This document shows positions 199-50,577 of a stretch of DNA of 62,013 nt, one piece after another (the stretch's first letter is position 1; each line of letters opens with the position of its first letter). This DNA comes from a virus (taxonomy: Duplodnaviria; Caudoviricetes): IMG/VR virus record IMGVR_UViG_3300026863_000036, positions 1 through 62,013 of that record; one strand, written 5' to 3'. Under the pieces are notes generated by a model. That model saw nothing but the letters and a program-made list of their open reading frames with translations, searched no databases and was not told where the DNA came from. A program made the position numbers and the translations under genes.

Positions 199-223
199 GC
201 CGCCTAACAGATTCCCGAAATGC

Positions 224-256
224 AAAAAGCCCCGGCCTCCAAAAGGGAGCCGGGGC
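224..256 (-). terminator. Rho-independent terminator
   Basis: Minus strand GCCCCGGCTCCCTTTTGGAGGCCGGGGC-TTTTT downstream of 280..720. Confidence 0.75.
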
Positions 257-279
257 CACACTCGTAGGGATATGTTCGC

Positions 280-2249: not shown

Positions 2250-2470
2250 CTTCGGATGCTGGCGACGACATCGTCTTCTACCGGAGCGAGAATGGGGATG
2301 AGTGGGTGTTGGTCGGAGGCACTGTTGGGACCACAGTGCGCCACCGGCCCAACTTATCCTCCGGAGGGCAAAACCGAGACATACCGCTCGAGGAATTCCT
2401 GCCCCGTGAACAGAATACCCCGCAGGGGCAAGCTCTTAGGGAATTGCTTCAGGCCGATGGGTTTATCTAA
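2246..2470 (+). CDS. Hypothetical protein
   Basis: Overlapping TTG start with AGGAG RBS; FYRSENGDEW...VRHRPNLSSGG. Confidence 0.6.
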   Translation: MTSDAGDDIVFYRSENGDEWVLVGGTVGTTVRHRPNLSSGGQNRDIPLEEFLPREQNTPQGQALRELLQADGFI

Positions 2471-2561
2471 GGCAAAGCTTCCCTTTGCGCGGGGAGTGCC
2501 ATTGCTCCCCCGGATCGGTAGCGCCTCGGCAACGTGGCTGGCGTCTGATCACCGGTCGTCC
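2471..2561 (-). repeat. ~90-bp structured element, copy A
   Basis: About 90% identical to 29458..29546. Confidence 0.9.
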
Positions 2562-2760
2562 CAAGCGCGTCCGCGCGCGATGATGTGTAGGAGTCGGTGG
2601 CAGGTCGCACAGAGGAGAGCGAGGTCCGTAACCTTCGTTTTGCGTTCACCGGCATCGGCAACCGAAGTCACATGATGCGCCTCAAAGTCAATGATGGACG
2701 CGGGGAGATGGTCGTGGTTCACGCCGCAGATATCTGCGCCATGCGCGCGACGTCGCTGCA
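2549..2760 (-). pseudogene. HNH endonuclease remnant (McrA-like)
   Basis: FEAHH...TKVTDLALLCATCHRLLH motif with no intact N-terminus; 5' boundary approximate. Confidence 0.65.
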
Positions 2761-2974
2761 GTAACAGCACGTGGCCAGAGACGCCCGGATTCCAAAGCAC
2801 TTAGCCCTTTTCCATGTCGCGTCTATGTCGCACTCATGTCGCGTGGAGGCGCGGCGACCCCTTGGAAAAAGCCGGAAATCTCTAGGGAAATCGTGGCGAC
2901 TGCCGATGCCCGCGAAAGTGCTAGCCTGAGAGTCCGGACTTTCCACTAACTTATTGATTCTGCGTACTGAATTT

Positions 2975-7058: not shown

Positions 7059-7255
7059 GCGACCTGCCGAAGCCAGGAATGCCGCTGGTCGAGTATCTTG
7101 AGCCCGGCGTGCAGCGCTGGACCTTCGCCAGCGATGATCCGGTGGTGCGGCAGCGGGAGTACTGGCACTGGCTCGGGTGGTTCGGCCTCGACGACGACGC
7201 CAAGCCCTTCGAGCAGAACGAGCGGTTCTGGTTGGTGAAGGGGCCGACCGACTAG
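7055..7255 (+). CDS. Hypothetical protein
   Basis: GAGG RBS, MSDLPKPG... Confidence 0.6.
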   Translation: MSDLPKPGMPLVEYLEPGVQRWTFASDDPVVRQREYWHWLGWFGLDDDAKPFEQNERFWLVKGPTD

Positions 7256-7452
7256 CTCGGAATGAACCCGCGCCGCTGCAGCCAGCTCTTGCCGCGCTGC
7301 GTGATGTGGCAGCGCTTCTTGTCCCCACCCATCACCAGGCGCTCATCCCATAGGATCTGAAACTCGGGGCGGTCCTCGATCGGCGTGCCGACCTGCTTGG
7401 ATAGCCGGATAAGTTCGGTGACCGCGATTTGAGGGAGTTCATAGTCCTGCAT
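7252..7452 (-). CDS. Small hypothetical protein, paralog of 1..198
   Basis: Near-identical protein at 1..198. Confidence 0.8.
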   Translation of the reverse strand: MQDYELPQIAVTELIRLSKQVGTPIEDRPEFQILWDERLVMGGDKKRCHITQRGKSWLQRRGFIPS

Positions 7453-7471
7453 GACCGCGACTTAGCAGATT

Positions 7472-10740: not shown

Positions 10741-11421
10741 TCAGTGAAGTGAGGCAGAAACGGCCCGGCTGTCAGTTCCAGCTCCGGTTCGCGTGACAGT
10801 TATAGGTGCCGGCGACCCCGCCGAACCTCCGCCCGCGACAGTAAAATATTCCGTGCTTCGGATGTCCGAATCGACGGTTTCGGTCAATCCCGACCATGCG
10901 CCGCCGGATGTTGCGGACGTATCGCGAACTTGAACTGCCCCGATAGCGGCACCACCAGCAACGATATTCACATCCAGGCTGAGCGGCGAACCGGTCGATG
11001 TGCTTGTCGTGATTGCGTCAGGTACATTCGGCGTTGCCGGATTGAGTGCGGGATAAGTAGCTACGCCGCAGCACAATGTGTTTGCGCTGGTGGTGACCTG
11101 CACATTGGCAGTTGTGCCGATAGGGACTTCTGCGACCCATATTTGAGCCTGAACAAATGAACTTGCATTCAGGCCGGCGAACAGCGACGCGGCATTTCCG
11201 CCGATCGTTACCGCCGATACCGTAAAGGTGCCTGACGAAGCCAATCCGATCGCGGCATAGACATAACGCTTGTTTGCACCGACAGGCGCGGGTCCGATGG
11301 CTAGCGACGAAACGGTGAAGCTGGTGCCGCTGCCCGGATTGACGGACCCAAAGCTGCCGTAGCTCAAAGAGAACGGCGCTCGAGCCCCGCCGAGCAGCGG
11401 CTGGAAGGAGACCCCGACCAT
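10741..11421 (-). CDS. Tail-fibre-associated / receptor-binding protein
   Basis: Ser/Thr/Gly/Ala beta-rich, translationally coupled to the fibre gene. Confidence 0.6.
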   Translation of the reverse strand: MVGVSFQPLLGGARAPFSLSYGSFGSVNPGSGTSFTVSSLAIGPAPVGANKRYVYAAIGLASSGTFTVSAVTIGGNAASLFAGLNASSFVQAQIWVAEVPIGTTANVQVTTSANTLCCGVATYPALNPATPNVPDAITTSTSTGSPLSLDVNIVAGGAAIGAVQVRDTSATSGGAWSGLTETVDSDIRSTEYFTVAGGGSAGSPAPITVTRTGAGTDSRAVSASLH

Positions 11422-12758
11422 CAGCTGAGCCCCGATCCAGAAATATACCACCTGGTCGTTGTGACCTTGATGGCCGTCGCCATGCCGTTGGCGGCCAGCG
11501 TGCGCGTACCCGTCGCACCCGTCCCGGCGAAAACCAGAGTGTCGGTGTTGATCGCAATCGATAGCGTATTGATTTCGTTTATGAACGTGATTGCCGTTCC
11601 AACCGGATAGGCAACTGACGAATTGGCGGCGATGGTGAAGGTTCGGGCGTTATTGTCGCTCGACGGGTGGTAAAGGTGCTTTTGGGCGTCCGCGAGCACG
11701 GTCGTGTAGGCGGCGCTCTGGGAGTTCTGCGGGATGTTCGAATAGAGCGGCACACCCTCGACGGCGATCACGCCGGCCGCCGCGCGGCTGAGAGTGGTAT
11801 CGGTTGCGTGACCCAACTCGATGCCGGCGAACTGGGGGCTGCTGCCAGTCGTCAGCCCCGAAATATCGCCCTGCACCAGCGCCAGCAGTGCCTTCAGCTG
11901 CGCCATGGTCACGTCTTCGGGATCGCCAGTGCCGGCAGTGTTGCGCCCCTTCACCGTCGCGTTCGGCATGTTGGCAAGCTTGGCGTTCGTGACATAGTCG
12001 TCGGGGACGGTGCCGAAGCGGCCATCATCCCCCGCCGCGACAGTCCCGGCGCCTGTACCCACGTTCCGTGAGGCGGAGTTGCCGAGCAAAGCACCGCTGT
12101 CCTTGATCAGATGGCCGGTGGTGCCGTCGAACACGGCGACACGGTTGTCGACGGCGCCAGCGGGTCCGGTCACGTTGCCCGGCATGCCCTGTGGGATCCC
12201 GAAATTCAGCACCGCGGCGCCGGAGGTGCCGACGTTCACGACTGTGGCCGGGGCCCCCGGTGCCAGCGTGGTGACAGTGCCAACCGCCACCGTGGCGGCC
12301 GGCCCCTGCGGAATCGAAAAGTTGAAGACGGCATCGTTCGGCGTGCCGACATTGGCGACGCTCGCCGGGACGCCCGCGTTGACGGTGGTCGTCGTGCCGA
12401 CGGCGATCGTGGCGGCTATGCCCTGGATGCCTTGGACGCCCTCAGGAATGCCGAAGTTCAGCACCATGTCTTTCGCGGTGCCGACGTTCACGACCGTTGC
12501 CGGTGAGCCAGGGGGCAAAGTCGTCACGGTGCCGACCGTTACCGTCGTATCGAGGTCGTCGATGGCGATTAGGTCTTGCCACGGTTGCCCGAGGTATCGC
12601 CACTGCACCATCGTGCCGGTGTTCTGCAGCTCAATCTGCATTGGCAGCAGCGACGGCACGACGCGCAGCCGCACTTTTGGCGGCGGGACGGCCTTGGCGC
12701 GCACCGCGAATTCGGGCTGCGCCTTGATCCTGAGCCGTGGGGTGATGGTGTCGCTCAT
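11421..12758 (-). CDS. Tail fibre protein with three internal repeats
   Basis: Three VGT.TT...A.V.NVGT...V.NF.IP.G units with GXY triplets. Confidence 0.75.
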   Translation of the reverse strand: MSDTITPRLRIKAQPEFAVRAKAVPPPKVRLRVVPSLLPMQIELQNTGTMVQWRYLGQPWQDLIAIDDLDTTVTVGTVTTLPPGSPATVVNVGTAKDMVLNFGIPEGVQGIQGIAATIAVGTTTTVNAGVPASVANVGTPNDAVFNFSIPQGPAATVAVGTVTTLAPGAPATVVNVGTSGAAVLNFGIPQGMPGNVTGPAGAVDNRVAVFDGTTGHLIKDSGALLGNSASRNVGTGAGTVAAGDDGRFGTVPDDYVTNAKLANMPNATVKGRNTAGTGDPEDVTMAQLKALLALVQGDISGLTTGSSPQFAGIELGHATDTTLSRAAAGVIAVEGVPLYSNIPQNSQSAAYTTVLADAQKHLYHPSSDNNARTFTIAANSSVAYPVGTAITFINEINTLSIAINTDTLVFAGTGATGTRTLAANGMATAIKVTTTRWYISGSGLS

Positions 12759-13093
12759 CTGCCGAACCCGCCCCCGACGAAGGCCAGCGTGCCGGTGAAG
12801 AGCTGTGTCGTGCCGGTGCCATTGGTCATCCGGCAGCCCACCCGATACGTGTTGCGGATATCGAGCGCCGCCAGTTGCGGCACGCTGAAGCGCCACTGGA
12901 TGGTGCCCGGCTCGGGGATCTCGATGCTGTTGTCGGCGGTGGTGGCGAACAGCCGGCGGGCGCTGCTCTCGCTCACCTCGAGCTCGAACAGCACGCCCGC
13001 CGTGGCGAGTGGCAGGTTGGTGGCGTCGTCGATCAAATCCACCCGCTGCGCCCAGTCGGCATCATCGGTCGCGAAGAACTGCAGCTCGTACAT
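12755..13093 (-). CDS. Phage tail-associated protein
   Basis: GAGG RBS, position in the tail cluster. Confidence 0.6.
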   Translation of the reverse strand: MYELQFFATDDADWAQRVDLIDDATNLPLATAGVLFELEVSESSARRLFATTADNSIEIPEPGTIQWRFSVPQLAALDIRNTYRVGCRMTNGTGTTQLFTGTLAFVGGGFGR

Positions 13094-26085: not shown

Positions 26086-27624
26086 TCAATAGCTTTGCCA
26101 ATCGCCCGGCGTTGCCCTGTCGGTCTTCATCGAGTAGCCCGACCTGTTCTTGCCGGCGTCGTCGGCCGGCTTGTTCCGAACCCATGGCCGCGACATGCAG
26201 GCGTACCGCCACTCATCGGCCGCGTGGTCTTCCATGTCGCTGTTTAGGTCTTCCGGCCTCGCCTCGTCGTGCTGCAGCATCGGGATGGTCCGGATGCTGT
26301 CGGTGCAGGTCGAGAAACAGTAGATCATCGGCCGTCCGTCGGGGTCGGGCTTGCCGTCCTCGTTGATCGTGGTCCCGACCAGGCGCTGGCGCATCATGTC
26401 CCAGCCACCCATGGCGCCGCGCTGCGACACGCGCTTGTTGTCGGCGCCACGGAAGAAGATCTTCTTGTCGCCCGAGCCCTCGACAATGCGGCTGGCAATT
26501 GAAGGTCCGCCATCCTCGGCGAACGCCGCCGGATCGAGCACGCCAAGGCCGACTTTCTCGGTCTCGCGCTGCGCCAGTCCCTTGCCGACCTGCTCCGCCG
26601 TGAGCTTCAGGCCCTTGTTTGGTTTGCCGGGCTCCATGCCGTACCATTCTCGGTACCGGATTATCGCGCCGCGGGGCAGCAGCACGCCCGAAACCGGGTG
26701 CCTGGTGTCATCGCCGACGATCGCCCACCAGCCGAACGAGAACGGCTTGGCGCTACCCCAGTCGCCGGAACGGAACTTCGCCCAGTCCTCGGGGATCTGG
26801 AACGGCTCGATGACGTGCAGGCGCGACGACCAGCAGTCGAAGAAGGCACCGTCAACGATATCCCAGTCGCCGTAGCGCATGGCGCGGACCAGCGCTTCGG
26901 AGCCGAGGCCGTTCAGTCGGTTTTCGTAGTCCGGGTCTTCCTCGATGATGGTCGGGTTGTCCTCGAGCCGCGCCGGGATGTACTGGCGCAGCATGCCTCC
27001 CTCAGTGGCACCCACACGGCTGGCTACGAGTGGGAGCTGACCGTCGATGAAGGTGGCCTTGACGAAGTGGTGACCCACGCCGCCCGGGTTGGCGCCACAG
27101 AGAATGCGCGGGAAGCTGCCGCGGTACTTCGCCGGCAAGGTGACGCCCGTCATGCGGACGCGATTGCGGAGGAACCGGTAGATCACCTCGGTGAAGTGCG
27201 TCAGCTCGTCGATCAGCAGGACGTGGATTTCCGCGCCCTGGTACTTGAAGCGGTCTTTCTCGTCCTTGCAGTGGCACAGGTAGATTTTCGAGCCGTTCCA
27301 GAACCGGATTTCGTCCTCGACGATCTCGACGAACCCGCATGCGACCCAGCCTGCGAGCAATGCCCGGAAGCCGTGCGGCCCTTCCATGTGGTTCTTGACC
27401 AGGTCCTCGCGGATGCGACGGAACAGGTAGACCTGCAACCCGGGGATTTCGGCGCACCAGCTGACAGCCGCCTGGCGCATCAGGTGCGACTTGCCGCCGC
27501 CGGCAGCGCCGCCGTAAAGGATTTCCGTGGCAGGCGAGAGGAAGGCCAGCCACTGCTTGGGGTGAAGGTCGATACGCAACTCGGCGGCCGCGAGGATCGA
27601 CGAGCTACTGGATTGTATGCCCAT
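26086..27624 (-). CDS. terL: Terminase large subunit
   Basis: Walker A GGAAGGGKS, Walker B LLIDE, nuclease DWG and DHAADEWRY. Confidence 0.93.
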   Translation of the reverse strand: MGIQSSSSSILAAAELRIDLHPKQWLAFLSPATEILYGGAAGGGKSHLMRQAAVSWCAEIPGLQVYLFRRIREDLVKNHMEGPHGFRALLAGWVACGFVEIVEDEIRFWNGSKIYLCHCKDEKDRFKYQGAEIHVLLIDELTHFTEVIYRFLRNRVRMTGVTLPAKYRGSFPRILCGANPGGVGHHFVKATFIDGQLPLVASRVGATEGGMLRQYIPARLEDNPTIIEEDPDYENRLNGLGSEALVRAMRYGDWDIVDGAFFDCWSSRLHVIEPFQIPEDWAKFRSGDWGSAKPFSFGWWAIVGDDTRHPVSGVLLPRGAIIRYREWYGMEPGKPNKGLKLTAEQVGKGLAQRETEKVGLGVLDPAAFAEDGGPSIASRIVEGSGDKKIFFRGADNKRVSQRGAMGGWDMMRQRLVGTTINEDGKPDPDGRPMIYCFSTCTDSIRTIPMLQHDEARPEDLNSDMEDHAADEWRYACMSRPWVRNKPADDAGKNRSGYSMKTDRATPGDWQSY

Positions 27625-28003
27625 CGGCGTCCTCGTCGCCCTGGGACTGCGCGACAGCCGGGGCCGGATGGTTGCCGTAGACGATGGTTGGCGTCAGCGG
27701 CGTGCCATCCTTTCCGGTGTGCTCGTGAACACTGGTTTCCTTCCAGCCGGCGCGGGTCTTCATCCAGAAGATAGCGGCAGTGACGGCCTCTCGGCCGGTG
27801 CCGGTAGCCATCCTGTACAGATTGCCCGCAACCTTCGTGGTTGCCTTGGTGGCGCCCAGGCCGAGTTCATCGGGGTAGTGCTTGCGCAGCGTGTTCTCGC
27901 TGAGGCGCAGAACCCTGGCGATGTCCGCTTGCGGAACGCCGAACGCTGCCATGGCTTCCACCATTTCGCGATCTTCATCCGTCGGTTCGTGCGCTGCGGG
28001 CAT
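27605..28003 (-). CDS. terS: Terminase small subunit
   Basis: HTH, AAIFWMKTRAGWKE, overlaps terL. Confidence 0.75.
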   Translation of the reverse strand: MPAAHEPTDEDREMVEAMAAFGVPQADIARVLRLSENTLRKHYPDELGLGATKATTKVAGNLYRMATGTGREAVTAAIFWMKTRAGWKETSVHEHTGKDGTPLTPTIVYGNHPAPAVAQSQGDEDADGHTIQ

Positions 28004-28038
28004 GTTCACCGAATCCAGTCTTTGCTATGCTTCGGACC

Positions 28039-28392
28039 ATGCGCCGCATTGCAATCGTCGGCTCCAGAAGCCGGACAGACCCGGAAAGCGTTCAGGCCCT
28101 CGTGGCCTCGCTGCCGGCTGATTGCATCGTGGTTTCCGGCCATGCCGCAGGGCCCGATCTATGGGCCGAAGAAGCGGCGATGGCCCGCGGTCTCGAAACG
28201 CTGATCTTTGCGCCCGACCTGGCCGGCGTGCGCAATCGCGGCGAAGCTTCCAGGCGCTACCATGATCGCAACCAGCTCATCGTCGACCATGCCGACGAAG
28301 TCGTTGCGTTTGTTGCTCCGGATCGGAAGGGCGGCACGGAAGACACCATCCGCCGCGCCGAAGCCAAGGGCATACCGATCAGGCTGCTTTAG
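28039..28392 (+). CDS. SLOG (DprA/YspA-like) family protein
   Basis: IAIVGSR, VSGHAAGPD, RNQLIV, KGGTEDTI. Confidence 0.85.
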   Translation: MRRIAIVGSRSRTDPESVQALVASLPADCIVVSGHAAGPDLWAEEAAMARGLETLIFAPDLAGVRNRGEASRRYHDRNQLIVDHADEVVAFVAPDRKGGTEDTIRRAEAKGIPIRLL

Positions 28393-29002
28393 GCTGCACC
28401 GCGCCGGCCACCATCACGATGCCCATCGCTGCAAGGCCTTCAGCGCGTAGGCGGCCAAGCGCTTCTTCCATATGAAAGCCCGACGTCGAGATGTCATCGA
28501 CGACGAGCACGGGGCCGTCGGGACGACGCACCATGTCCAGCGGTGGGATGTCCCGGAACTCTTTGGGGTGCGAACCGCCTGTGAGATAACGGGGAGCGAA
28601 GGCGCCGACCAGGGCGATGCCTGTCATCTCTGCCAGCGCGCTGGCTATCCTGAACGAGAGGCAGTCCGGCCGCCGCGAGTGGCCGCAGGCGATTGGCACC
28701 ACGCTGCGGAACAGTAAGGCCGGGTCGCCAACCATCAGGCTCAGTAGATCGCGCATCTCGTTGACGATATCGCTGATGCCGGCCTCAGGCAGCTCGAGCT
28801 TGAACTGCTTGAACGCCTCTAGGTCGGCTTTCTTCGTCGCAACGGACCATGACCGGCAGACCAGATACTGCACGCCATTGCGGGAGCGAAGGGCAGGGCG
28901 AACGACCGTACCGGCGAGGTAGTAGCGAGATGGCTTCGGCTTCGGCGCAACTGGTTCTGGTGGCGGTGCCGCGCGAAGGGACAGGCCCTTTAGGTCGAGC
29001 AC
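28379..29002 (-). CDS. Type I phosphoribosyltransferase (ComF-like)
   Basis: PRPP-binding loop VLVVDDISTSG. Confidence 0.8.
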   Translation of the reverse strand: MLDLKGLSLRAAPPPEPVAPKPKPSRYYLAGTVVRPALRSRNGVQYLVCRSWSVATKKADLEAFKQFKLELPEAGISDIVNEMRDLLSLMVGDPALLFRSVVPIACGHSRRPDCLSFRIASALAEMTGIALVGAFAPRYLTGGSHPKEFRDIPPLDMVRRPDGPVLVVDDISTSGFHMEEALGRLRAEGLAAMGIVMVAGAVQPKAA

Positions 29003-29181
29003 GGTCTTTTATAGACCGCAAACGGGGTGACGGCGTTGAGGTCGATCATCATGTACTCGTCGACGAAACCGAGCCTGCTTGTCGGTCAGGTTGCTCATTC
29101 CACGCCTCCGGCCTTTTACTGGAGTTGGAATGCGCGAACCAACTGACCATATTCTTTGTGTCAACCAACAGGAGATCGCCC

Positions 29182-29454
29182 GTGAAGCTGTTCCCAGATC
29201 CCAACCACCCGGAATTCGCTCTTATTCAGCTATTTCGAACCGAGCCCGGCGATCTGGGGATCCCCGATGTTCCTTGGATCCCGCAAGAGCGGTCATCCCT
29301 TGATGACGTCGCCATCGAGCGCCTGGCGTCCTATCACAGGGACGCCTCGAGGCCGTCGCGGTCGAAGCCGACGCAATCCTACGCGCTCGACCGTCATGAC
29401 AACGTCGTGGCCGAATATCGGATGATGCCAACGGGGGCGGTGCGCGTACGGTGA
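29182..29454 (+). CDS. Hypothetical moron protein
   Basis: GTG start with AGGAG RBS. Confidence 0.5.
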   Translation: MKLFPDPNHPEFALIQLFRTEPGDLGIPDVPWIPQERSSLDDVAIERLASYHRDASRPSRSKPTQSYALDRHDNVVAEYRMMPTGAVRVR

Positions 29455-29457
29455 GTG

Positions 29458-29546
29458 GGCATAGCTTCGCTTTACGCGGGGAGTGCCCTCTCCCCCGGAT
29501 CGGTAGCGCCTCAGCATCGTGGCTGGCGTCTGATCACCGGTCGTCC
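29458..29546 (-). repeat. ~90-bp structured element, copy B (candidate late-leader RNA)
   Basis: About 90% identical to 2471..2561; foldable hairpins. Confidence 0.85.
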
Positions 29547-29598
29547 GTGTGGTATTTGGGTACTCTGATACCGCTGATTTGGCAAGCGTTCAACCAAG

Positions 29599-29973
29599 CT
29601 ATTCTGCCCGCATGCACGGGGAAAGGACCGCATTAAAAACCAGAACGTTCGCCGACCAGTTCCACTTGTCAGGGTTGTCGCTGAGATATTTGCGAACAAT
29701 CGCCCCTTGTTGGACAACGCTTCGGCCATCGATGCATGGGTACGCCCTGTCGATGCACTCGGCTGTTCCGCCCAACAACCCAGCGGCCATCATCGCGTCG
29801 AGAACGCCAGCGACGTAATTCTCGAGGTAGACCTGATCTGCCTTTGCGAACGTCTCACCGGTAGCGTAGCCGCTACGAAAGTAGACGGACTCACCGGTCA
29901 CGTCGCAAGCGGGAGCCGATGATGAGAATATGCATGCTAAGGCGCCGATTACTGAAACAGACAACAGTCTCAC
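29599..29973 (-). CDS. Rap1a/Tai-like exported immunity-family protein
   Basis: Signal peptide; YVAGVLDA...C...IVRKYLSDNPDKWNWSA. Confidence 0.65.
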   Translation of the reverse strand: MRLLSVSVIGALACIFSSSAPACDVTGESVYFRSGYATGETFAKADQVYLENYVAGVLDAMMAAGLLGGTAECIDRAYPCIDGRSVVQQGAIVRKYLSDNPDKWNWSANVLVFNAVLSPCMRAE

Positions 29974-30025
29974 GAAAGCCCCCTCTTCATTGAGCGGGGC
30001 ATAGTGCTCTTGCTCTCTATCGGAG

Positions 30026-30634
30026 TCACGCCGCCGCTAACCGCTCGAGCGGGACGCGCACCGCCATATCGATGCCGAACATCGACATCAGCACTTTTGC
30101 GATTTCGCCGTCGATCTCGGCGATCGTCACGACCTTGCCGACGAAGCCGCCCTCGTCGAACTCCTCCTGTCCCCGCGTGTACCGCTTCCACCGGCCGACC
30201 CGCACTTCCATGCCGACCTCGAGCTGCTGGTCCTCGACCTCCTCGATGACGCTCGTTGGGGGCAACTGGTACAGCCCGGTGCCGTATCGCATCTGCTGCC
30301 GGAAGATCTCGGGCGCCCCGATCGGCGTGGGCATGCCGTCGCTGGTCACGGAGACAACGCCGGAGAGTAGCGGCTCCAACTTCGGATCCTCGAATAGAGA
30401 GCGCCAGGCTGGCTGAGCGGTAGGAAAGCCCGTCATGAGGTAGCTGCCGAGCTGCGCCTGGGGAAACCGCCGAACTGACTTGCAGTGGCGCGAACCACGC
30501 CGGCGCGAGCGCCAGTCGTAGGGCAGGGCGGTGACCAGCCCTCGATCCTGCAGAACCGACGCGGCCTTGAACACGCGGTTGGGCCGCGCGACGAGCAGGT
30601 ACCAGTGATGTGCTGAGATGTTGATGTCCGACAA
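30026..30634 (-). CDS. NusG-family antiterminator (putative late regulator)
   Basis: NGN-like WYLLVARPNRVFKAA; KOW-like EVGMEVRV...GGFVG...AKVLMSMFG. Confidence 0.8.
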   Translation of the reverse strand: MSDINISAHHWYLLVARPNRVFKAASVLQDRGLVTALPYDWRSRRRGSRHCKSVRRFPQAQLGSYLMTGFPTAQPAWRSLFEDPKLEPLLSGVVSVTSDGMPTPIGAPEIFRQQMRYGTGLYQLPPTSVIEEVEDQQLEVGMEVRVGRWKRYTRGQEEFDEGGFVGKVVTIAEIDGEIAKVLMSMFGIDMAVRVPLERLAAA

Positions 30635-30716
30635 AGTGCAGCCCCCATGGTGAGGGCCGGAGCGTTCGGAGCGACAACGGTATTATGTTACCGCGATTTG
30701 CGGCGACGGTCTAGGA

Positions 30717-31682
30717 TCATCCCTCGAGTTTCGGGGTGTTCCTCTTCGGAAGAAAGTTCGCGCTCGACACCACACTTCGGCCGGTCTGGCCTTCGATGCT
30801 CCGACGTGCGTTCCCGGCAATGTCGCCTCCGGCTCGCGCGGCATTCTTGTTCTGATCAAACCCTTGAGCGTCTCGAATTTGCGCGATTTCCTTTGTGGAC
30901 TTCTCCGCCAACTGCGTGAGGATCAGTTCAAGATCGGTCATATGATCGCGAAGGTTGTGGCTTCTGCTCAGCCGCTTTATCTCTTTGTGCTCCGTGGGCT
31001 TCACGCCGAAGGTCCGCGTTGACAACACCGTCGTCAAGATCGCGAATTCGACGTCCTCAGTGACGCCGCGCTTCTGCCATTCGTTCGTCAGTTCCTTCCG
31101 GACCATGATCGATCGAATGCGTTGTTCGATCCAGTCCATGGGACGACCCTGGAGCTGGTACTCCATGATCGCGCGCTTGATCGCGATCTCCGGGTCCTGA
31201 ATCTCCTGGATGCGCTCGTAGGCGACTTTGGCAAGCCAACGCTTAAAAGGCTCGGCCTTCGGCGAGGGCACAGACTGCAGGATGCGGAACAAAGTCTCCG
31301 CATTACACGCGTCGGTCTCTCTCCGTTTTCCGTCATCCGCTTCGAGAGGCAACTGTACGATTTCCTCGTACAGTTCGGCGAACCCCTCGTCTCGGTGCAT
31401 CTTGGCCTTGAGATCGGACCAGTATCGCCTCGGGTTCGTCGAGTCGGTGAGCGCGCCGATCACATCGACGATCGAGAAATGCCACTCGCTGCGGTGGAAG
31501 ACCTTGCGGATACGAGCGCCTTTGAAATCCGCAAGAACTGCATCACCGTCATGGACCACAGCCGCAACTATGCTGGATCGATCACGCAGCAGTTCCTCCG
31601 TTGTTGCGCTGGCGAAGCGCCGTAGCGCCTCGTCAACGGGAGTGTCGACGCCAAGCTCTTTGCCAATTTTCTTCTCGTCCAC
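30717..31682 (-). CDS. Bro-N domain protein
   Basis: WHFSIVDVIGALT..NPRRYWSDLK, QSVPSPKAEPFKRWLA, LRDHMTDLE. Confidence 0.85.
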   Translation of the reverse strand: MDEKKIGKELGVDTPVDEALRRFASATTEELLRDRSSIVAAVVHDGDAVLADFKGARIRKVFHRSEWHFSIVDVIGALTDSTNPRRYWSDLKAKMHRDEGFAELYEEIVQLPLEADDGKRRETDACNAETLFRILQSVPSPKAEPFKRWLAKVAYERIQEIQDPEIAIKRAIMEYQLQGRPMDWIEQRIRSIMVRKELTNEWQKRGVTEDVEFAILTTVLSTRTFGVKPTEHKEIKRLSRSHNLRDHMTDLELILTQLAEKSTKEIAQIRDAQGFDQNKNAARAGGDIAGNARRSIEGQTGRSVVSSANFLPKRNTPKLEG

Positions 31683-31717
31683 GACTCGACCTCCTTTTCG
31701 CCCATCGGAGATCATAC

Positions 31718-34175: not shown

Positions 34176-35117
34176 TCATGCTCCCTGATCCTGGCGCTGG
34201 CGGAGCACGTCGTTCCAGTCGGTGGCCAAGTCGGGCGGGACGGTGACCTGCACCGTGCGGGTCTTGTCGCGACTGAGCCGTTTGCCCAAGGCAAAGGCGG
34301 CCGCCTGCCCAACGCAGTTCAGATCGGCATCGCCGAACACCACGATTTCGTTCACGCCCTCCGGCGGTTGCCACGCCTCGAGGCGGTTCTCATTGAGCGC
34401 GGCCCACACCGGCAGGTTGAACAAGCGAGCGGCTGCCAGCGCGGTTTCAATGCCCTCGGCGATGCCGAGCACCTTGTCGTGATGGGCTAGGCGTATGGCG
34501 CCCCCGTCGGGCAGGGCGCCCGTGTTCCACCTATCCGGGTCCAGCCCTGCCTTTTGCCCGTCTAGGGTCAGGAACGTGCGCTGCACACCCGCCAGGTCGC
34601 CGTGCACGTCCACATAGGCCGAGACCAGCGCCGGGTAAGTCGTGCCGCTGAACGGGGTCGCCGGGATGAACTTCAGAGCTCGGGTTGGCTGATAGGTCCC
34701 GACACGATTCCGAAGGTACAGATCCACGGGGTCGCCGGCGGTGATGCGCTTGCCCGACCGCCAGAACGCCTGCGCTTCGGCGAACTTCTCCGCCGCGTCC
34801 TTCTGCGGCTTGACGGGCTGTGGCGGTGCTGGGTCGGTCCCGATGATCTTCTCAACCTCGGCGGCCATCTGTGCGAATGCCCAGCCCCGTAGGTCCATCA
34901 CCAGCTGCATGCCGGTGCGCGCGCCGCATTGGCCGCAGATCGAGGTGCCTTGCCCCTGCAAGTCGTCGAATCGCCAACGATCTTTACCGCCGCAGATGGG
35001 GCAGGGGTGGTGCTTCCCGTCGAGATGCCGGTTGTCGACGCCGAACTGGGGCAGAATGGTCTGCCAGTGCCCTTGGGCGCGGTCCTTCAATGGGGTGCGG
35101 TCATGCTGCATTTGCAC
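34176..35117 (-). CDS. Primase (Zn-finger + TOPRIM)
   Basis: CPICGGKDRWRFDD, IAEGIETAL, FGDAD, DWND. Confidence 0.9.
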   Translation of the reverse strand: MQMQHDRTPLKDRAQGHWQTILPQFGVDNRHLDGKHHPCPICGGKDRWRFDDLQGQGTSICGQCGARTGMQLVMDLRGWAFAQMAAEVEKIIGTDPAPPQPVKPQKDAAEKFAEAQAFWRSGKRITAGDPVDLYLRNRVGTYQPTRALKFIPATPFSGTTYPALVSAYVDVHGDLAGVQRTFLTLDGQKAGLDPDRWNTGALPDGGAIRLAHHDKVLGIAEGIETALAAARLFNLPVWAALNENRLEAWQPPEGVNEIVVFGDADLNCVGQAAAFALGKRLSRDKTRTVQVTVPPDLATDWNDVLRQRQDQGA

Positions 35118-36576
35118 GCTCCCGCTTTTCCATGCCCTTGGCGAACGCGATGGCCTTGGCCTTCACGTAGTTGCGGCAGAACACGTCGGGCTCCATCGGT
35201 CTCGCCGAGAGCCCGCGCGGCCAGACGCCGAACCGATCCTTATAGGTGTGGGAGGCCCAGCCTTCGGACTTGCCCCTCTGCTGCACATACCAAAGCAGAC
35301 CAGACCAGAAGCGCTGTTTCTCCGCCTGGGTGTAGCTCCGCCCCTTCCCGCCCAGCTGGTGCAGCTCGCCGTCGACCGTATCGACAGCCTTGCGTAGCAC
35401 TGGTTCGAATCCGCACGCGGGGCATTTGTGGACGCCGGCCGGCTTCACGTAGCTGCAACCGGCTGCGGGGCACTCGGTCGGCAGCTTCTGCTTGCTTTGC
35501 GGCCTCGTGCTCGAACCTTCTTCCGGCTTCCCGGTATCCAGATGCTCGTGGTGAATGTCGGTCACGAAGCCAAGCTTCAGCGTCGTGTCGGAGTGGTCGA
35601 GGATCAGCGCGTCTTCTTTGCCGGCGGCGGTGCGCAGCGCCCGGCCCACGATCTGGACGAACAACTTTTCCGACTTGGTCGGCCTTGCCAGGATCAGGCA
35701 GCGGACGTCCCAGTCGATGCCGCGCGTCAGCACCCCGACGTTCACCACCACCTTGATGCGGCCCGCGTTGAAGGCCTGGCCTATCTTGTTTCGGTCTTCG
35801 CGCTCGGTGAAGGCGTCGATGTACCCCGTCGTGATGCCAGCGTGCTGGAATTCTGCCTCGAGCGATCGGGCGTGCGCCCGGTTGACCGCGAAACAGAAGG
35901 TTGGCCGGTTCTCACCGATCCGCATCCAGGTTGAGACCACGTCGGCAACCAGCTGCGGCTTATCCATCGCCGCTGCGAGCTCGCCCTCGTGGTAGTCCCC
36001 ACCGACGGTGTGAACACCCTTCAGGTCGGGGTGGGCCGGGGCGAAGACGCGGAACTTCGACAGGTAGCCGCGTTCGATCAGGTCTTTCGTGGTTGCGGCA
36101 ATCAGCAGGTCGTCGTAGTGGCGGCCGAGACCCTTCGACCAGGGTGTTGCCGACAGCCCGATGAAGGGGATCGACTGGCGCTCAGCCATCCACCGGAAGA
36201 TGACTTTGTGCATCTCGTGCGCCTCGTCGTTGAGCACGAGGTCGACCCACGGGAATTGTCGCTTCACCAAGCTCTGGACGCTGCAGACCTGCACGGGCTT
36301 GGTGTGGTCGGTCAGCGGGTGGTCGGCCTGCATGACGCCGATCTCGGTGATGCCCTCGGCGCCGAACTCTTCCACTGTCTGGTCGATGAGAGAGATCGAG
36401 GGCACCGTGAAGGCGACCTTCTTGCCCTTGTTCAGGGCGTTGCGGATGATCTGGGCGGCGGTAAGGGTCTTGCCGAAACCGGTAGGCGCCATCAGCATCG
36501 GCCGGGTGTGGCCGGTCTTCAGCGAGGCGCGCAGTAGGTCGATGGCGGCGTGCTGGTGGTCGTAAAGCTGGCGCAT
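35101..36576 (-). CDS. SF2 DEAH helicase
   Basis: PTGFGKT, DEAH, LSATP, QIVGRALR, C-terminal Zn ribbon. Confidence 0.92.
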   Translation of the reverse strand: MRQLYDHQHAAIDLLRASLKTGHTRPMLMAPTGFGKTLTAAQIIRNALNKGKKVAFTVPSISLIDQTVEEFGAEGITEIGVMQADHPLTDHTKPVQVCSVQSLVKRQFPWVDLVLNDEAHEMHKVIFRWMAERQSIPFIGLSATPWSKGLGRHYDDLLIAATTKDLIERGYLSKFRVFAPAHPDLKGVHTVGGDYHEGELAAAMDKPQLVADVVSTWMRIGENRPTFCFAVNRAHARSLEAEFQHAGITTGYIDAFTEREDRNKIGQAFNAGRIKVVVNVGVLTRGIDWDVRCLILARPTKSEKLFVQIVGRALRTAAGKEDALILDHSDTTLKLGFVTDIHHEHLDTGKPEEGSSTRPQSKQKLPTECPAAGCSYVKPAGVHKCPACGFEPVLRKAVDTVDGELHQLGGKGRSYTQAEKQRFWSGLLWYVQQRGKSEGWASHTYKDRFGVWPRGLSARPMEPDVFCRNYVKAKAIAFAKGMEKRERANAA

Positions 36577-37064
36577 CAGCTGTCGCCTCCGACCACGAGG
36601 CGGAGGTTCGGACGCTTGGCAGCCCCTAGTGCCCTATTACTTCTACCGTGACCCCTTCTTGGTACAGAGACTGTGGTTGTAGAGAACTCCTTATCCTTCG
36701 TAAATTTTACTAGGGGGTCTCGTAAAATTTGCGAGGGGGGTGCCAGCTGTTTTCTCAGTGCGCGAACAGCACTCTTTTCGACCACCAAAGACGGCGCATC
36801 GAGCCGCAGCACGATCTCATCTGAGGTGCGCCCCTCCTTCGCCGTGAACCGCGCGCGGCGGTAGATTAGCCCAAAGTGCTGAAGGGCTTTGAGGGCAGAG
36901 AACACGGTTTTTGCCGAGAGCTTCGTCCTGTCGGCCATGGTCTGCTGCGAGGGAAACAGTGGGGAGCCGACGAAGTGCATGCGAGCCAATGTCTCGAGCA
37001 CGAGGGACAGCGTCCGATCCTCGATCTGCAGCTTCCTGAACCACTTGAGGGCGGCAGCGCTCAT
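36576..37064 (-). CDS. HTH-domain replication-region protein
   Basis: FPSQQTMADRTKLSAKTVFSALKAL. Confidence 0.7.
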   Translation of the reverse strand: MSAAALKWFRKLQIEDRTLSLVLETLARMHFVGSPLFPSQQTMADRTKLSAKTVFSALKALQHFGLIYRRARFTAKEGRTSDEIVLRLDAPSLVVEKSAVRALRKQLAPPSQILRDPLVKFTKDKEFSTTTVSVPRRGHGRSNRALGAAKRPNLRLVVGGDS

Positions 37065-37258
37065 AGCTCCAGCCCCCGGAAGTACCGGCTCATCCGCTTT
37101 GCGTAAGCATCGGCGTCTTCGCGACTTGGCATTTTCGCGACCCATTTCGTGGGGTCGCGGCGCTGGCTGACCACAAAAGGGTGACGGCGCTGCCGGCGAT
37201 CGGGATTGGCCCTGACCACGTAGAGAGGTTGGTTGTCGTTCACGGCTTGCGGCGTCAT
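37061..37258 (-). CDS. Hypothetical protein
   Basis: Overlap-coupled early gene. Confidence 0.55.
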   Translation of the reverse strand: MTPQAVNDNQPLYVVRANPDRRQRRHPFVVSQRRDPTKWVAKMPSREDADAYAKRMSRYFRGLEL

Positions 37259-47300: not shown

Positions 47301-50300
47301 CTTCAAGATGATCATCGAACCCAGAAAGCCAGCGCATTGTGCTCGCGTCGGCGACGTAGAACGAAACACTCTCTGCAAGCCGGTTCAGTAGGCCGACGCG
47401 ATGCAGGGTCACGAGTTCATTCGGTTCAACCTCGAACTCGAGAGGAAGGTTGAGGGGCGGTCCATCCGCGACGGGATCCAGCGACAGTTCTGCCTTGGCC
47501 CGCTCGGCAAGTTCGCGATCCATGCCGTGCGCGACGAGGTGGGCGAGAAGGACATTGAGTGAAACGTGGGTGGGATCCTCTCCCTGAGGCGTTATGACCA
47601 ACCGGCGAACTCGAGCGTTTGAGCCGGAGCTGGCGAAGCGCCCCGCCTCCAAATCGCGTCGGATGTCGTGAGCTTCATCGGCCACATGTCCGAACTGCTC
47701 CTCGAGTTCGATCTCCATCGTTCGCAGGAGCTCGGGGGTCTCATTGGGTAAGAGCATGCGCGGCCAGGCATGCTCGAGGTGCTCGAGCAGTCCGAGCTCT
47801 TGGCCCAGCAGCAAGGCGGTTGCGTCAAGCACGAGGAGGCCGCTTGGGGCGGTGGTCTCCACTTGACGTATGCCAGCTCGGAGCAGGAAGGGCTTGCCAA
47901 CGACAGTGCCGTCGTCCTGCAACCTCGGGCGTGCCCGAAAGGCCCGGTGAAAGAACCATGCCAAGTCGGTCGCGCGGCCATCGAAGACGAGGTGTAGCGG
48001 TATTTCACCGCGGAGCCACTTCTCGGTCAGCGCGGCGTCCGCTTCCTGTATCCGGGCAGCATTGCTATTGGCGAACTCGATCGCCTCCTCGACGCTGTTG
48101 AGGACTGTGATGCCTGATGGTGGGGCGTCAGGACCGAATAGGCGCGGCATGATAGCGTTGGCGGCGGCCCGGAGTCCCAGTTCGTTGACGAGCGTAAGAG
48201 CCTGCGGCAGCAGCTTGCGGTTCAGGTTGCCAAACGAAATACCCGCCAGTAGATCTTTGGCCAGTTCGGGATCTTCGTAGCGAAGTTCCGCAGCGATCTT
48301 GAGCAGCGCTTCCGGGCTGCCGTCTGGCGTCTTCCTGCCGCGAAGGACTGACGCAGCCCCTGTCACATCGCCGATCCTGAGACGCATCAATGCGTCTTCG
48401 AATGCCAGCTCGTTGCTGCTGTCGTTGGCACGCATTTCCTTGAATGCTCGCAGCGCCAGTGCAGCGTCACCCAGCGAGAGTTGCGACTTTGCGAGTAGTA
48501 CGCCCAGGGTCACGGGCAATCGCGATCCATAGAACGTGTCGGCAAGCTCGGTGGCCAGCGAGACCACATCCTTGTGGAGGCTGAGGCCGAACGCGGCTCG
48601 TATGACTATCTCGGAAGCCTCTGAGGTGCGGAATGCGAGGAGCGTGGAACGCCGGTCGTTGATCTCGATCCACTTACCGTTCAGCGCGAGGTTCTCGAAA
48701 GCGGCTAGCTGCATGTCGGGATCGAGCGTCCCAGTGTCCAGCATCTCGAGCAAGTCGGTTGGATTGCCCTTGGTCCTGAGCTTACCAAGTGCGGCGTTGA
48801 ACTTTTGACTTCGACTGTCGCCGCCCTTCCCACCCAGTAGAGCAATCCAATAGTCGACCAACTTCAGGTCCAACTCATCACTGAACAGCTTCCGATGCCG
48901 CTTGAGGGCCGAGAGCGCCCGATCCTTCGCGCCGCGGGTAAAAGTAAGATAGGCGATGGCAACTGCGTGGGAAGCGTCGGCGGCGCCTGAATTCAGTCGG
49001 CTATTCAGCGCTCGCACGACATCGTCCTGATCGAACGCTAACCCCGCCGCAGTAGCCCATACCACTGCACCTGGGTGGGGATTGTCGCCCTCGAGCAGGG
49101 CCGCTGCGAACTGGCCCGCATCTGTCGACCGGCCTGGGTTCAGGATCAGGCAAGCCAGCCGCCATACCCGCAGGTCAGCAGCTTGGTCAGGGGTGTCGAC
49201 GGTGCGCGACAGTATGTCGAAGATGCGCTCAGCCTCGTCGAGGGCACGCCGAGCGTCCTCGGTTTCGCGGACCAATCCCTGCGGAATAGGGTTGGGAAAC
49301 GTGGAAAGCGTTGGGGCGAACTTGCCGCTCAAGGCAAAGTTGAACCGAACCACCGCGGCTGCCCATTGTACAGCGAACTGTCGCGGCGCGACATGCTCGA
49401 CCCTCGAGATGGTCGCCAAGGCTCCGGGTCTGTCCTGCCAGAGTTGTGCTATCGAGCGGAGCCGTGCTGGCTCATAGGCATCATCTGTCGGCGAGGTGTT
49501 CGGCCATACGTCCAGAACTCCGAGCGCCTCATCTGGCTTTTCAAGCTCTAGAAGGAGCCCGGTGCGGATGCTCGCTTCAGAAGAGGTGGCCGGGTTGCAC
49601 ACGAGCTCGAGTGCGGACGCTGGACCGACCTCCAGCCGAGCCACCAGAACCGAAGGTGTACGATCAGGCGGCGGTGAGTAGACGGCGGCGTCGGCGTAGC
49701 ATGCCTTAGCCGACGCGAGGTCGTTGTCTCTGATGGCAAGCGAGCCTTCGGCGCGAAGGAACTTCGCCTTGATATCGTCCGCTAACGCGTCCCATGAGAT
49801 ACGATCGGCCTTGAGCTCCGCTACTAACGAACGCAGGGGTCTCGCAATGCCCTCATGAAGGTTCTGAAGTGCGGTTTCGAGCCGATCGGCCGTTGCGCTG
49901 CCGAGGCGTTGGCGCACGGCATCAGCGACACCATTTAGCGATTGCGTGACGGCAGCGGTCGCGATCGAGTTCGCGGTTGACGTCCCAGGGCTCGGCACCG
50001 CCGTCGATGCAACAAGTCCCATGCCGGCCCCGACTCTCTCCAGCCAGCCGGCGGGGAAGAACCTGACGATGGTGTGGGGCAGGGGCCGAAGCTTCTCGGT
50101 GAGCTTCTTGAGACCCCAAACTTCGTAGCGAATGCCTAGCGCCCTGAACCGGGCGCTCTCAAGCGTTATCTGGTCGTTTAGGCCGTCGTCATTGAGGTCG
50201 ACGGAGACCGCGAGGACGAAGCGTTCGACGCCCTTGTCTTTCCAGTGGCCCCCGACATGTTTGAGGAAATCGGTGCTCCAGATGGCAAGATCGCTTGGCT

Positions 50301-50577
50301 GAATCTTCTTGTAGCGTTTGCAGGAGATGACCAGCACTGGCTGCTGTTCGTCCGAGAACCCCTCAACGTCGACGCCATATTGCGCTACGCCGGTGGTGCG
50401 CTTGAGCTCGGCGCGAACGATGCCAGGTTCTTTGTCGGCAATGTCGGAGAGGATTTCCTCAAGGTCTTCATCATGAACCGCGAAGCACGGGAGCCGATGC
50501 TGATTAGGGTCCGGCGGACGCGACAGGAGATCCTGGTCCGGTTGTCCTTTCTCTGTCTTCGCCGTCTTTCGGGCCAT
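44392..50577 (-). CDS. 2061-aa REase-fold + TPR-like + PIN-like protein
   Basis: QYGVDV...ISCKRY, long helical repeats, LVLDATALLL and IWAEDR. Confidence 0.7.
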   Translation of the reverse strand: MARKTAKTEKGQPDQDLLSRPPDPNQHRLPCFAVHDEDLEEILSDIADKEPGIVRAELKRTTGVAQYGVDVEGFSDEQQPVLVISCKRYKKIQPSDLAIWSTDFLKHVGGHWKDKGVERFVLAVSVDLNDDGLNDQITLESARFRALGIRYEVWGLKKLTEKLRPLPHTIVRFFPAGWLERVGAGMGLVASTAVPSPGTSTANSIATAAVTQSLNGVADAVRQRLGSATADRLETALQNLHEGIARPLRSLVAELKADRISWDALADDIKAKFLRAEGSLAIRDNDLASAKACYADAAVYSPPPDRTPSVLVARLEVGPASALELVCNPATSSEASIRTGLLLELEKPDEALGVLDVWPNTSPTDDAYEPARLRSIAQLWQDRPGALATISRVEHVAPRQFAVQWAAAVVRFNFALSGKFAPTLSTFPNPIPQGLVRETEDARRALDEAERIFDILSRTVDTPDQAADLRVWRLACLILNPGRSTDAGQFAAALLEGDNPHPGAVVWATAAGLAFDQDDVVRALNSRLNSGAADASHAVAIAYLTFTRGAKDRALSALKRHRKLFSDELDLKLVDYWIALLGGKGGDSRSQKFNAALGKLRTKGNPTDLLEMLDTGTLDPDMQLAAFENLALNGKWIEINDRRSTLLAFRTSEASEIVIRAAFGLSLHKDVVSLATELADTFYGSRLPVTLGVLLAKSQLSLGDAALALRAFKEMRANDSSNELAFEDALMRLRIGDVTGAASVLRGRKTPDGSPEALLKIAAELRYEDPELAKDLLAGISFGNLNRKLLPQALTLVNELGLRAAANAIMPRLFGPDAPPSGITVLNSVEEAIEFANSNAARIQEADAALTEKWLRGEIPLHLVFDGRATDLAWFFHRAFRARPRLQDDGTVVGKPFLLRAGIRQVETTAPSGLLVLDATALLLGQELGLLEHLEHAWPRMLLPNETPELLRTMEIELEEQFGHVADEAHDIRRDLEAGRFASSGSNARVRRLVITPQGEDPTHVSLNVLLAHLVAHGMDRELAERAKAELSLDPVADGPPLNLPLEFEVEPNELVTLHRVGLLNRLAESVSFYVADASTMRWLSGFDDHLEGQALAGKVKALRELVAKKANSGTWGFLPVDLSKRDGLREMGASGRLFFSLIRAGEREPCEIWAEDRTLSLVGKLEQATIIDVRTVLGRISHRLSEPQVAGAWKRLRAAGYGFTLPANEAIVDALLSTATEGAVLVESDELAAIRRDFAVQFANSRHLIDKASVAAPTEPELLFLSRLLGLAGKVLAALWSRSNVGDERLSAAATWVARHLRVDQAKFLPRENRSVAGREGLLYLQHLSLVGSMFNVTGSSLRQSRERRSKLLEWVLGSIVEPALELHPTFRERLINYFADALASLGELDSDQPDVTENILAGVVLDYINAFPEHWRVALQRHEKLSHLVGLRELKNVSIGKNFTFEAAEFYAAVAEAYANGKATAPMMGGKRSAVITRIYDAVPAADKPVAFMVKAGSKTVNFADDRLELETSDIEQRLRALKRHPSWFDQGGTELEAAARSIAENPDPNARRQLLGNAQDKAMTWRLKTLQEQIRQRSSSDKALLLPPHPDSVRQFLRLASPIDVSGQDWLDQSFTKLREEVGPLGALARIGGLPFELGGAIEKALLDAVDEVGLDEALHLAGPTPMVRTGLFAALLRAGKTELDLSGLTLPWNDHGVLFQSLLRLAFRGASRSYDWGNVPEPERSILLWTHSNAVLEILAGEGAAPREAARIIDSFMNQRIDDVYRRSRSHASRLLDPAGNSWRETAGAGIAYAIRDCASSELDNGQRDQLRTTVARQVGNDWLVELELWVPKGSVEPPGCWLAIDAAAPLAEAGIAALPSPIDERDPRKMASLLQQRIVDEAVAEEASGYWPVLWMLGVDELDAEASARMNDLIGSPDRLPDFDAQDGGVWAGALRYRGELYGVDDNVDGFRQTLIAAAEQARANHPGERVSELSIKSSIVTTFHRVGEAIWQFSSASSSTLVGCSTRFAESIIVLADAWPESLLACLALLEVIAAQLDTEPAGPLWDAINLLRSR

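Follow-up and report, generated by a model that had tools for sequence, protein, structure and literature searches.

A conserved structured element linked to NusG-like genes is a candidate site of late antitermination in Devosia-type phages

Introduction

What does a structured, non-coding element of about 100 nt do at the head of a phage late operon, and why does it occur a second time at the far end of that operon? The question is raised by a 62,013-bp IMG/VR provirus record (the window, by which the whole stretch of DNA analyzed is meant), whose terL is 83-86% identical to those of prophages in Devosia genomes, so that the host is most likely Devosia. A preliminary description had proposed a late switch composed of a phage NusG paralog and a structured RNA, and as far as sequence comparison goes this proposal is supported by the NusG-like fold of the protein, the covariation of the element, its linkage to the NusG-like gene, the gene order and the terminators of three diverged relatives. 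We lean towards the reading that the element serves as a cis site for late antitermination by the NusG paralog, and in several Devosia-type phages the element probably forms a previously undescribed read-through switch into the late genes.

Gene organization of the window

The features under discussion are listed in Table 1. Virion, tail and lysis genes run from terL down to the HNH gene (2800..2549). The PRTase-like gene (minus strand) and a SLOG-like gene (plus strand) occupy the approximately 1.4 kb from copy B of the element to terS. Plus-strand ORFs (28027..28392 and possibly 29182..29454) separate copy B from terS.

Elsewhere in the window, adjacent recombinase genes are found at 40582..43796 on the plus strand, one for a large serine recombinase (phrog_95) and one for a tyrosine integrase (phrog_1), and the 2061-aa ORF to their right (44392..50577, minus strand) has no PHROG match. 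A direct repeat of 193 nt with 83% identity is present at 7-199 and 7261-7453; two small ORFs on the minus strand, 1..261 and 7252..7452, are paralogous to each other, and their homologs in genome G005 lie about 3.5 kb from the element. The ORF of a 491-aa tail protein (11421..12896) contains three tandem copies of about 118 nt at 12176-12545, which are 61-72% identical.

Table 1. Positions of the element, its parts and the neighboring genes in the window.
Feature	Position	Strand	Remarks
Element copy A, directly past the HNH gene, 3' end of late operon	2463..2566	-	covariance model about 115 bits
HNH endonuclease ORF, end of late operon	2549..2800	-	Pfam HNH, E 1.3e-5
Terminase large subunit (terL)	26086..27624	-	phrog_979 and phrog_2
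Terminase small subunit (terS), first recognizable late gene	27605..28009	-	phrog_309, E 1.2e-16
PRTase-like gene, between copy B and terS	28379..29002	-	weak Pfam Pribosyltran match; 87-89% identity to G005 locus
Element copy B, about 100 nt, head of late operon	29450..29551	-	covariance model 111.5-115.3 bits; repeat core 29458..29548
Third stem of copy B, around GCGAAGC	29459..29477	-	weakly supported
Hairpin 2 of copy B, GGGGAG / CUCCCC	29478..29495	-	86.7% of cells paired; two-sided changes in 4 pairs
Hairpin 1 of copy B, four short helices totaling 12 pairs	29501..29539	-	unpaired conserved GAUC, bulged A, CGA internal loop
GGACGA, conserved unpaired 5' stretch	29541..29546	-	in A, B, L167, L091, L184 and L185
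Promoter-like stretch	29557..29593	-	TTGCCA (29585..29580) N17 TACCCA (29562..29557); unproven
Alternative promoter-like pair	29593..29565	-	TTGAAC (29593..29588) N17 TATCAG (29570..29565); unproven
GCCAAATCA box, upstream of the element	29575..29583	-	GC(C)AAATCA in several copies
Small Rap1a-like gene, between NusG-like gene and copy B	29599..29973	-	Pfam Rap1a (PF18602), E 1.7e-6; phrog_3870, E 3.2e-8
NusG-like protein gene, 202 aa	30026..30634	-	predicted NGN + KOW
Bro-N protein, early operon	31715..30717	-	
Early operon: replication initiator, helicase, primase	37145..34176	-	
CI-like repressor	38308..39405	+	

Copies of the element and their occurrence

The described repeat of about 90 bp at 2471..2561 and 29458..29548 is recovered by BLAST, which aligns the two copies (A and B) in the same orientation with 91% identity over 89-91 nt (E 7e-32), and a covariance model finds both on the minus strand at about 115 bits each. 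In the alignment of the two, the differences are confined to the third stem and to positions that are unpaired in hairpins 1 and 2, as had been noted. Since these differences include a 2-nt indel, the stretch is considered non-coding, and indels of 2 nt and 4 nt between copies rule out a coding reading.

Nine distinct copies are compared here: B, A, G005, L170, L167, G017, L091, L184 (genome G529) and L185 (genome G524). L091 was obtained at 29.5 bits with the first covariance model in a search of 1.5 Mb of terL-linked loci, and L184 (37.7 bits) and L185 (29.7 bits) are the two best new matches among 151 Devosiaceae genomes. Twelve weaker model matches (22-26 bits, L186-L197), with no NusG-like ORF within 1.5 kb, were left out of all counts, and so were L029, L013, L089 and L070 (14-18 bits). 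One of the twelve, L188 (G003:C11:974303-974398), is a partial copy that consists of the 3' half only, hairpin 2 and the third stem; the same region of G003 also contains sequences homologous to the window genes located at 1726-1790 and 2273-2460. Additionally, a comparison with contigs of four DNA runs revealed the conserved core alone (29490..29557) in other contexts: two contigs of the soil metagenome run X6 contain it with 2-3 differences, and in one of them the core stands at the end of 1137 nt, the remainder of which is unlike the window.

By BLAST, the element is present in 2 of 64 Devosia genomes, with one copy each, and a sample of 401 genomes of the order contains it once. A single copy is found in each of six genomes or records (G005, G017, G524, G529 and the records of L170 and L091), and among the genomes and records checked the window alone has two. 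Blastn gave no match for the element among 72,556 plasmid and 50,697 deposited phage records, and exact-pattern scans of IMG/VR gave none either; in metagenomes the exact pattern led to two loci, including L166, which is identical to G005 over the aligned stretch.

Two short sequences are retained at the 5' side of the element. GGACGA (Table 1) is replaced by AGACGA in L170 and by GAACCA in G017 and is missing in G005. In copy B, L170, L091, L184 and L185, 15-28 nt separate the GC(C)AAATCA box from the GGACGA that follows; the box is located farther upstream in G005 and is missing from copy A.

The comparison with Rfam that the preliminary description had suggested did not assign the element to a family: the window has no match at the gathering score, and 29300..29700 has none at E <= 10. 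In the loci L184, L185, L170 and L163 (the last being that of G005), the matches at E <= 1 are tRNA alone at the gathering score (in L163 and L185) and two others far below it. ARAGORN finds no tRNA or tmRNA in the window, and a tRNA, tmRNA or att-site relic was rejected as the identity of the element because neither ARAGORN nor Rfam reveals any tRNA/tmRNA similarity.

The least probable of the explanations considered, which we all but dismiss, is an intergenic repeat of the host type (REP- or MITE-like), an att relic or a bidirectional terminator that is unlinked to the NusG-like gene. Such an origin would suit A, B and L167, each of which is flanked by convergent ORFs and has a stop codon 1-4 nt away, but it is difficult to reconcile with the rarity of the element in Devosia and in the order, with the lack of tRNA/tmRNA similarity or of a U-tract on either strand in the window, and with a plus-strand ORF by copy B that has no homolog outside its own record. 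A REP/MITE-type dispersed repeat is ruled out by the copy numbers, one per genome in six others.

RNA fold and covariation

RNAalifold, applied to six and then seven sequences, yields the long hairpin 1 followed by hairpin 2, and in the model-guided alignment of nine copies 94.1% of 153 cells are paired. Between 94 and 100% of the cells of hairpin 1 are paired, and when the nine copies are compared, both partners differ in 8 of the 12 pairs; MAFFT, applied independently to seven copies, gives identical helix-1 pairs. Of the seven Devosia-type copies, six have CGCC/GGCG as the central helix and G017 has CGCC/AGCG, with one pair broken; the diverged copies have GGGC/GCCC (L091), GGUC/GACC (L184) and AGCC/GGCU (L185). 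The GGGGAG/CTCCCC hairpin of the preliminary description is real, with GGCCAC/GTGGCC in its place in L170. The third short stem is weak, with 68% of its cells paired, and in L184 and L185 a canonical terminator hairpin stands where it would be.

Covariation, which had been named as a check, is observed: 12 of the 18 pairs (21 cells) change on both sides, compared with 4.2 ± 1.4 and 4.8 ± 1.7 in shuffles (0/500), in a set of few sequences and with a shuffle control that ignores relatedness. In slid controls, 2-5 pairs change on both sides. Most of the compensatory changes come from four sequences (L170, L091, L184 and L185), and the last three of these are biased toward the fold because they were found with the structure model itself.

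The basal GATC/GATC pairing that had been proposed for hairpin 1 has to be abandoned, as the 3' GAUC is missing in L091, L184 and L185. The register CGGU..ACCG / AG..CU / CGCC..GGCG / GC..GC keeps 12 of 12 pairs in these three copies with different letters, and GAUC is therefore regarded as a conserved unpaired internal loop; on the seven closer copies, the GATC/GATC pairing scores similarly (90.5%). GGACGA at the 5' end and the CGA opposite are likewise conserved and unpaired.

Single-sequence folding energies are no better than those of shuffles on either strand (z -0.85, -0.78, +0.31 and -0.95), with the exception of L185 (z -2.2). The case for structure is thus based on the comparison between copies and not on energy.

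Linkage to the NusG-like gene and gene order

Linkage to phage nusG had been named as a check in the preliminary description, and 7 of the 9 copies (B, G005, L170, L167, L091, L184 and L185) are directly preceded, on their own strand, by a NusG-like ORF or a remnant of one. The IMG/VR contig L170 has the NusG-like gene, the element, terS, terL and the portal gene on one strand. In L091, a diverged NusG-like ORF (hhalign against the family, 95.7%) is followed by the element, a terminator-like hairpin, an ORF at 9424 that is identified as terS from its translation, unscored, and terL. In L184 and L185, the NusG-like ORF (hmmsearch E 6e-7 and 4e-8) ends about 30-35 nt upstream of the element, and past element and terminator come terL in L184 and tRNA-Met, HNH and terS in L185. 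In these four loci, the element comes after the NusG-like gene with no other gene in between, and terminase genes lie downstream on the same strand.

In G005 (L163), the order is NusG-like gene, 114-aa ORF, element and, 9 nt on and on the same strand, tRNA-Met; the 114-aa ORF occupies the position of the Rap1a-like gene of the window and is unrelated to it. Past the tRNA-Met come small plus-strand genes and then the PRTase and SLOG genes of the window, and terS is truncated while the element is kept. In the metagenome contig L167, the NusG-like gene is a C-terminal remnant 1.5 kb from the element with a 468-aa gene between, and G017 (L165) has a degenerate copy, with 6 of 18 pairs broken, and no NusG-like gene. 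The SLOG-like and PRTase-like proteins of the window (28027-29002, compared with L166:593-1557) are 87-98% identical to those of G005, whereas the NusG-like proteins are 67% identical, which suggests a boundary of mosaic exchange at or near the element.

The element is found in every examined locus that has a close or moderately diverged member of the NusG-like family. Distant NusG-like ORFs upstream of terL (L157, L122, L014, L160, L018/L142 and L162) have other leaders, in which the covariance model finds no match. These same-strand ORFs of alphaproteobacterial phage loci are located at L014:7613-8221, L157:4428-4988, L122:1059-1649, L160:3793-4455, L018:728-1276 and L162:4742-5314, and the leader in L014 has a hairpin and then a T-run about 150 nt past the stop codon.

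A tRNA-Met gene (CAT) is present downstream on the same strand in two separate lineages (L163:1415-1491 and L185:1411-1486, both minus), 9 nt past the element in G005 and 14 nt past the terminator in G524, and this placement indicates transcription in that direction. The wobble pairs favor the late-operon strand weakly (6 G-U against 3; 94.1% against 92.2% paired), and the strand is assigned because the NusG-like gene, the U-tract terminators, tRNA-Met and the terminase genes all lie on it.

The tRNA-Met genes also bear on another explanation, in which the leader and the 3' end of the late operon give rise to a small stable RNA or an RNA end or processing element that acts in trans or protects ends. 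RNase P would free the RNA upstream of tRNA-Met in G005 and G524, the element and terminator of L091, L184 and L185 would yield a short transcript, and copy A is in a 3'-UTR position. We nevertheless regard this explanation as improbable, since it has no known target, a trans-acting RNA would not need the strict place between the NusG-like gene and the late genes, and a 3'-end copy is found in the window only.

The short distance from the element to terS in L091 and L170 (44-260 nt) raises the possibility of a DNA packaging site, cos/pac or a terminase binding site, just upstream of terS, with the copies bracketing the virion genes. An HNH gene often partners cos cleavage, and one abuts copy A and precedes terS in L185. 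A packaging site is very improbable all the same: the stems keep their pairing while the sequence changes, unlike a duplex site for protein binding, G005 retains the element despite its truncated terS, and in the window the element is 1.4 kb from terS and the copies are just 91% alike.

The NusG-like protein

The upstream ORF on the minus strand had been described as a NusG paralog, and its NusG-like nature is confirmed by Foldseek, by Pfam matches of its family and by phrog_6386. The GC3 of the ORF is 0.85. Its product (P0002) has 19 relatives at E <= 0.001; Pfam NusG (NGN) is matched by 11 of 17 aligned family members (best E 1.2e-6) and KOW by 6 of 17, and for P0002 itself the E value is 0.063. 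With the AF2 model of P0002 (pLDDT 73.1), the top Foldseek matches are NusG, RfaH and Spt5, and 18 matches have E <= 1e-3 (best 3.9e-6). According to this model, the protein has the NusG fold, with an NGN domain and then a KOW beta-barrel. A sequence profile, compared with PDB chains, did not retrieve NusG.

P0002 falls into phrog_6386, annotated "transcription antiterminator" (E 1.3e-5); the L170 homolog matches it over its full length (E 6.9e-9), and the proteins of L091, G005, L184 and L185 match it as well. The product of 30026..30634 is a candidate late antiterminator. The protein is found in 1 of 64 Devosia genomes, and the same genome has the element adjacent to the gene. Tblastn gave no match for it in 50,697 deposited phage genomes; a peptide-pattern scan of IMG/VR with P0002 gave none either, and an alignment-based scan of IMG/VR with the protein gave one locus (L170).

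Terminators and promoter

In three diverged relatives, a terminator directly follows the element. L091 has a terminator-like hairpin of 10 pairs with the T-rich tail TTGTCATTTT at 9381-9404, and L184 and L185 have canonical intrinsic terminators, stems then U-tracts. In the clade of the window (A, B, L167 and G005), no recognizable intrinsic terminator is found past the element, the window copies have no U-tract on either strand, and convergent ORFs abut the 3' end of the element; for the plus-strand ORF adjoining copy B, no homolog is found outside its own record. The blocked step in this clade may be Rho-dependent or further downstream.

The preliminary description had placed a sigma-70-like promoter, TTGCCA-N17-TACCCA, before copy B. 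These hexamers are present in the sequence, but both this pair and the alternative TTGAAC-N17-TATCAG (Table 1) fall below the threshold of a consensus scan, which finds no promoter-like site in 28000..31000; TACCCA lacks the T at position 6, and the spacing of the proposed promoter to the element is not kept in G005. The same scan finds no site in L091 and L170. Weak candidate pairs are present elsewhere (TTGAAC-N17-TAGTTT in L184 and TTGATT-N17-CATCGT in L091), and the GC(C)AAATCA box lies within the spacer of the weak candidate promoters of copy B, L184 and L091. As no promoter passes the scan, transcription across the element may simply continue from upstream, where the NusG-like gene lies.

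Copy A

Copy A has the complete fold, with 18 of 18 pairs Watson-Crick. Upstream of GGACGA it is unrelated to copy B and has neither the box nor a promoter-like stretch; the last codons and the TGA stop of the HNH ORF lie inside it, the ORF ending at 2549 within CCGGTGATCAG. There is no NusG-like gene at copy A and no minus-strand gene for about 2.2 kb past it, where, in the direction of the late strand, plus-strand genes for a DUF2934 protein and a 74-aa protein are followed by the minus-strand ORF 1..261, a paralog of 7252..7452.

Some states of copy A are shared with L167 and others with B, so that copy A is not a fresh duplicate of B. It is most likely a displaced second copy acquired through recombination with a related phage, and it may serve as a second loading site. 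Two other ideas were rejected. That the element belongs with the 74-aa gene on the left of copy A is contradicted by the homologs of that gene in G001 and G003, which precede unrelated DNA, and integration of the prophage into an older late leader would have left a half with box and promoter, of which there is none near the integrase end.

Comparison with known systems

The closest parallel is LoaP. RfaH, LoaP and UpxY are known from cellular operons and plasmids, and to our knowledge LoaP is so far the only specialized NusG paralog tied to an RNA hairpin. For LoaP and the dfn cluster of Bacillus velezensis, a leader RNA hairpin and a NusA-dependent intrinsic terminator are reported as the determinants of antitermination (PMC12691694). 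As there, the gene for a NusG paralog adjoins its putative target operon in the window, L170, L091, L184 and L185, and the order of hairpin leader and then intrinsic terminator is seen exactly in L091, L184 and L185. The differences are that the operon here is a phage late operon of Alphaproteobacteria and not an antibiotic gene cluster of Bacillota, that the RNA is larger (four stacked helices and a second hairpin) and unrelated in sequence, and that the window copies have no visible terminator.

A likeness to RfaH is seen in the NGN + KOW paralog, in a candidate leader cis site of a long, horizontally acquired operon and in the RfaH chains among the Foldseek matches of the P0002 model. The ops element of RfaH comprises 12 nt of the non-template DNA strand, whereas the conserved feature here is a covarying RNA fold. 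The 8-mer CGGTAGCG, shared with ops, is not on the strand of late transcription but on the other one, and it varies in G005 and G017. RfaH/ops membership was rejected, as no 12-nt ops lies on the non-template strand of the leader and this 8-mer alone is found, on the wrong strand. RfaH-like genes have been noted on prophages (PMC7593976).

In phage lambda, the gene for the regulator Q comes first, then a short leader that contains a terminator, in some cases tRNA genes, and finally the late genes. The map position of regulator, leader and late genes is the same here, and the GCCAAATCA box in the spacer of the candidate promoter loosely resembles a Q-binding element. However, the regulator is NusG-like and not Q, and these loci show no convincing sigma-70 promoter; the detailed analogy to lambda pR'/qut drawn in the preliminary description is unsupported because the specific sigma-70 promoter finds no support in the scan. 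Membership in the Q/qut class was rejected on the NusG-like regulator and the absence of promoter-like sites in the scan.

The put RNA of phage HK022 acts without a phage protein and serves early operons, whereas the element here is linked to a NusG-like gene and would serve a late operon. The RNAs putL and putR are about 70 nt each, with two stem-loops, and are two similar copies (PMC9378689). The element shares with them a structured nascent RNA of a phage with two stem-loops and, in the window, two copies; put is located after a promoter and precedes terminators, and the second copy of the window has no promoter. A put-like RNA could in principle act alone, the nascent RNA binding RNA polymerase and rendering it terminator-resistant, with a separate role for the NusG-like protein. 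The size of about 70-100 nt, the two copies in one phage genome, the conserved unpaired loops, which fit contact with a protein or polymerase, and copy A and G017, which have no NusG-like gene, would all be compatible with this. We consider it unlikely in view of the tight linkage of 7 of 9 copies to a NusG-like gene, the single copy in each of six other genomes or records, the position of copy A, which has no promoter and heads no operon, and the lack of a matching Rfam family.

Proposed mechanism and significance

The cis-site reading is favored because the order of paralog gene, structured leader, intrinsic terminator and long operon is the LoaP layout, and because of the likeness to put. 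From the sequences we infer that the element is transcribed, that it is bound and that antitermination ensues, in the following manner. The late operon, with its packaging and virion genes, would have the element as its leader, transcribed from the minus strand like the genes around it. In the nascent RNA, hairpin 1 would be long and irregular, carry the GGACGA tail at its 5' side and leave GAUC and CGA as unpaired loops; the variable second hairpin would come next. The phage NusG paralog (30026..30634) would engage RNA polymerase at the element, recognizing either the RNA, as LoaP does, or a paused complex, and the polymerase would then ignore the following terminator or terminators and transcribe the late operon of about 25 kb to its end. 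Copy A does not fit this model, and the window copies without a terminator and the plus-strand ORFs between copy B and terS speak against it.

A broader joint reading is that of a new class of phage late-gene switch, for which we judge the chances to be slightly below even. A new RNA family, with its GGACGA tail and GAUC loop, would load the paralog onto the host RNA polymerase; a short module of gene, RNA and terminator would gate the whole virion operon and would be exchangeable among temperate phages of Alphaproteobacteria; and the distal copy A would re-arm the polymerase to pass the convergent lysogeny genes.

A review of specialized NusG paralogs names LoaP, RfaH, UpxY, TaA and ActX, and none in phages (PMC7819879). 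A full-text literature search returned no description of a phage NusG-like late switch or of the element. How each specialized NusG paralog finds its target is a live question. If the favored reading is true, the element would represent a new structured RNA family and a natural test bed for the RNA-guided loading of NusG paralogs, and the module is a candidate portable antitermination part for long operons in Alphaproteobacteria. For the phages themselves, it would mean a principle of late-gene control unlike the Q, N, put and late-activator schemes of model phages.
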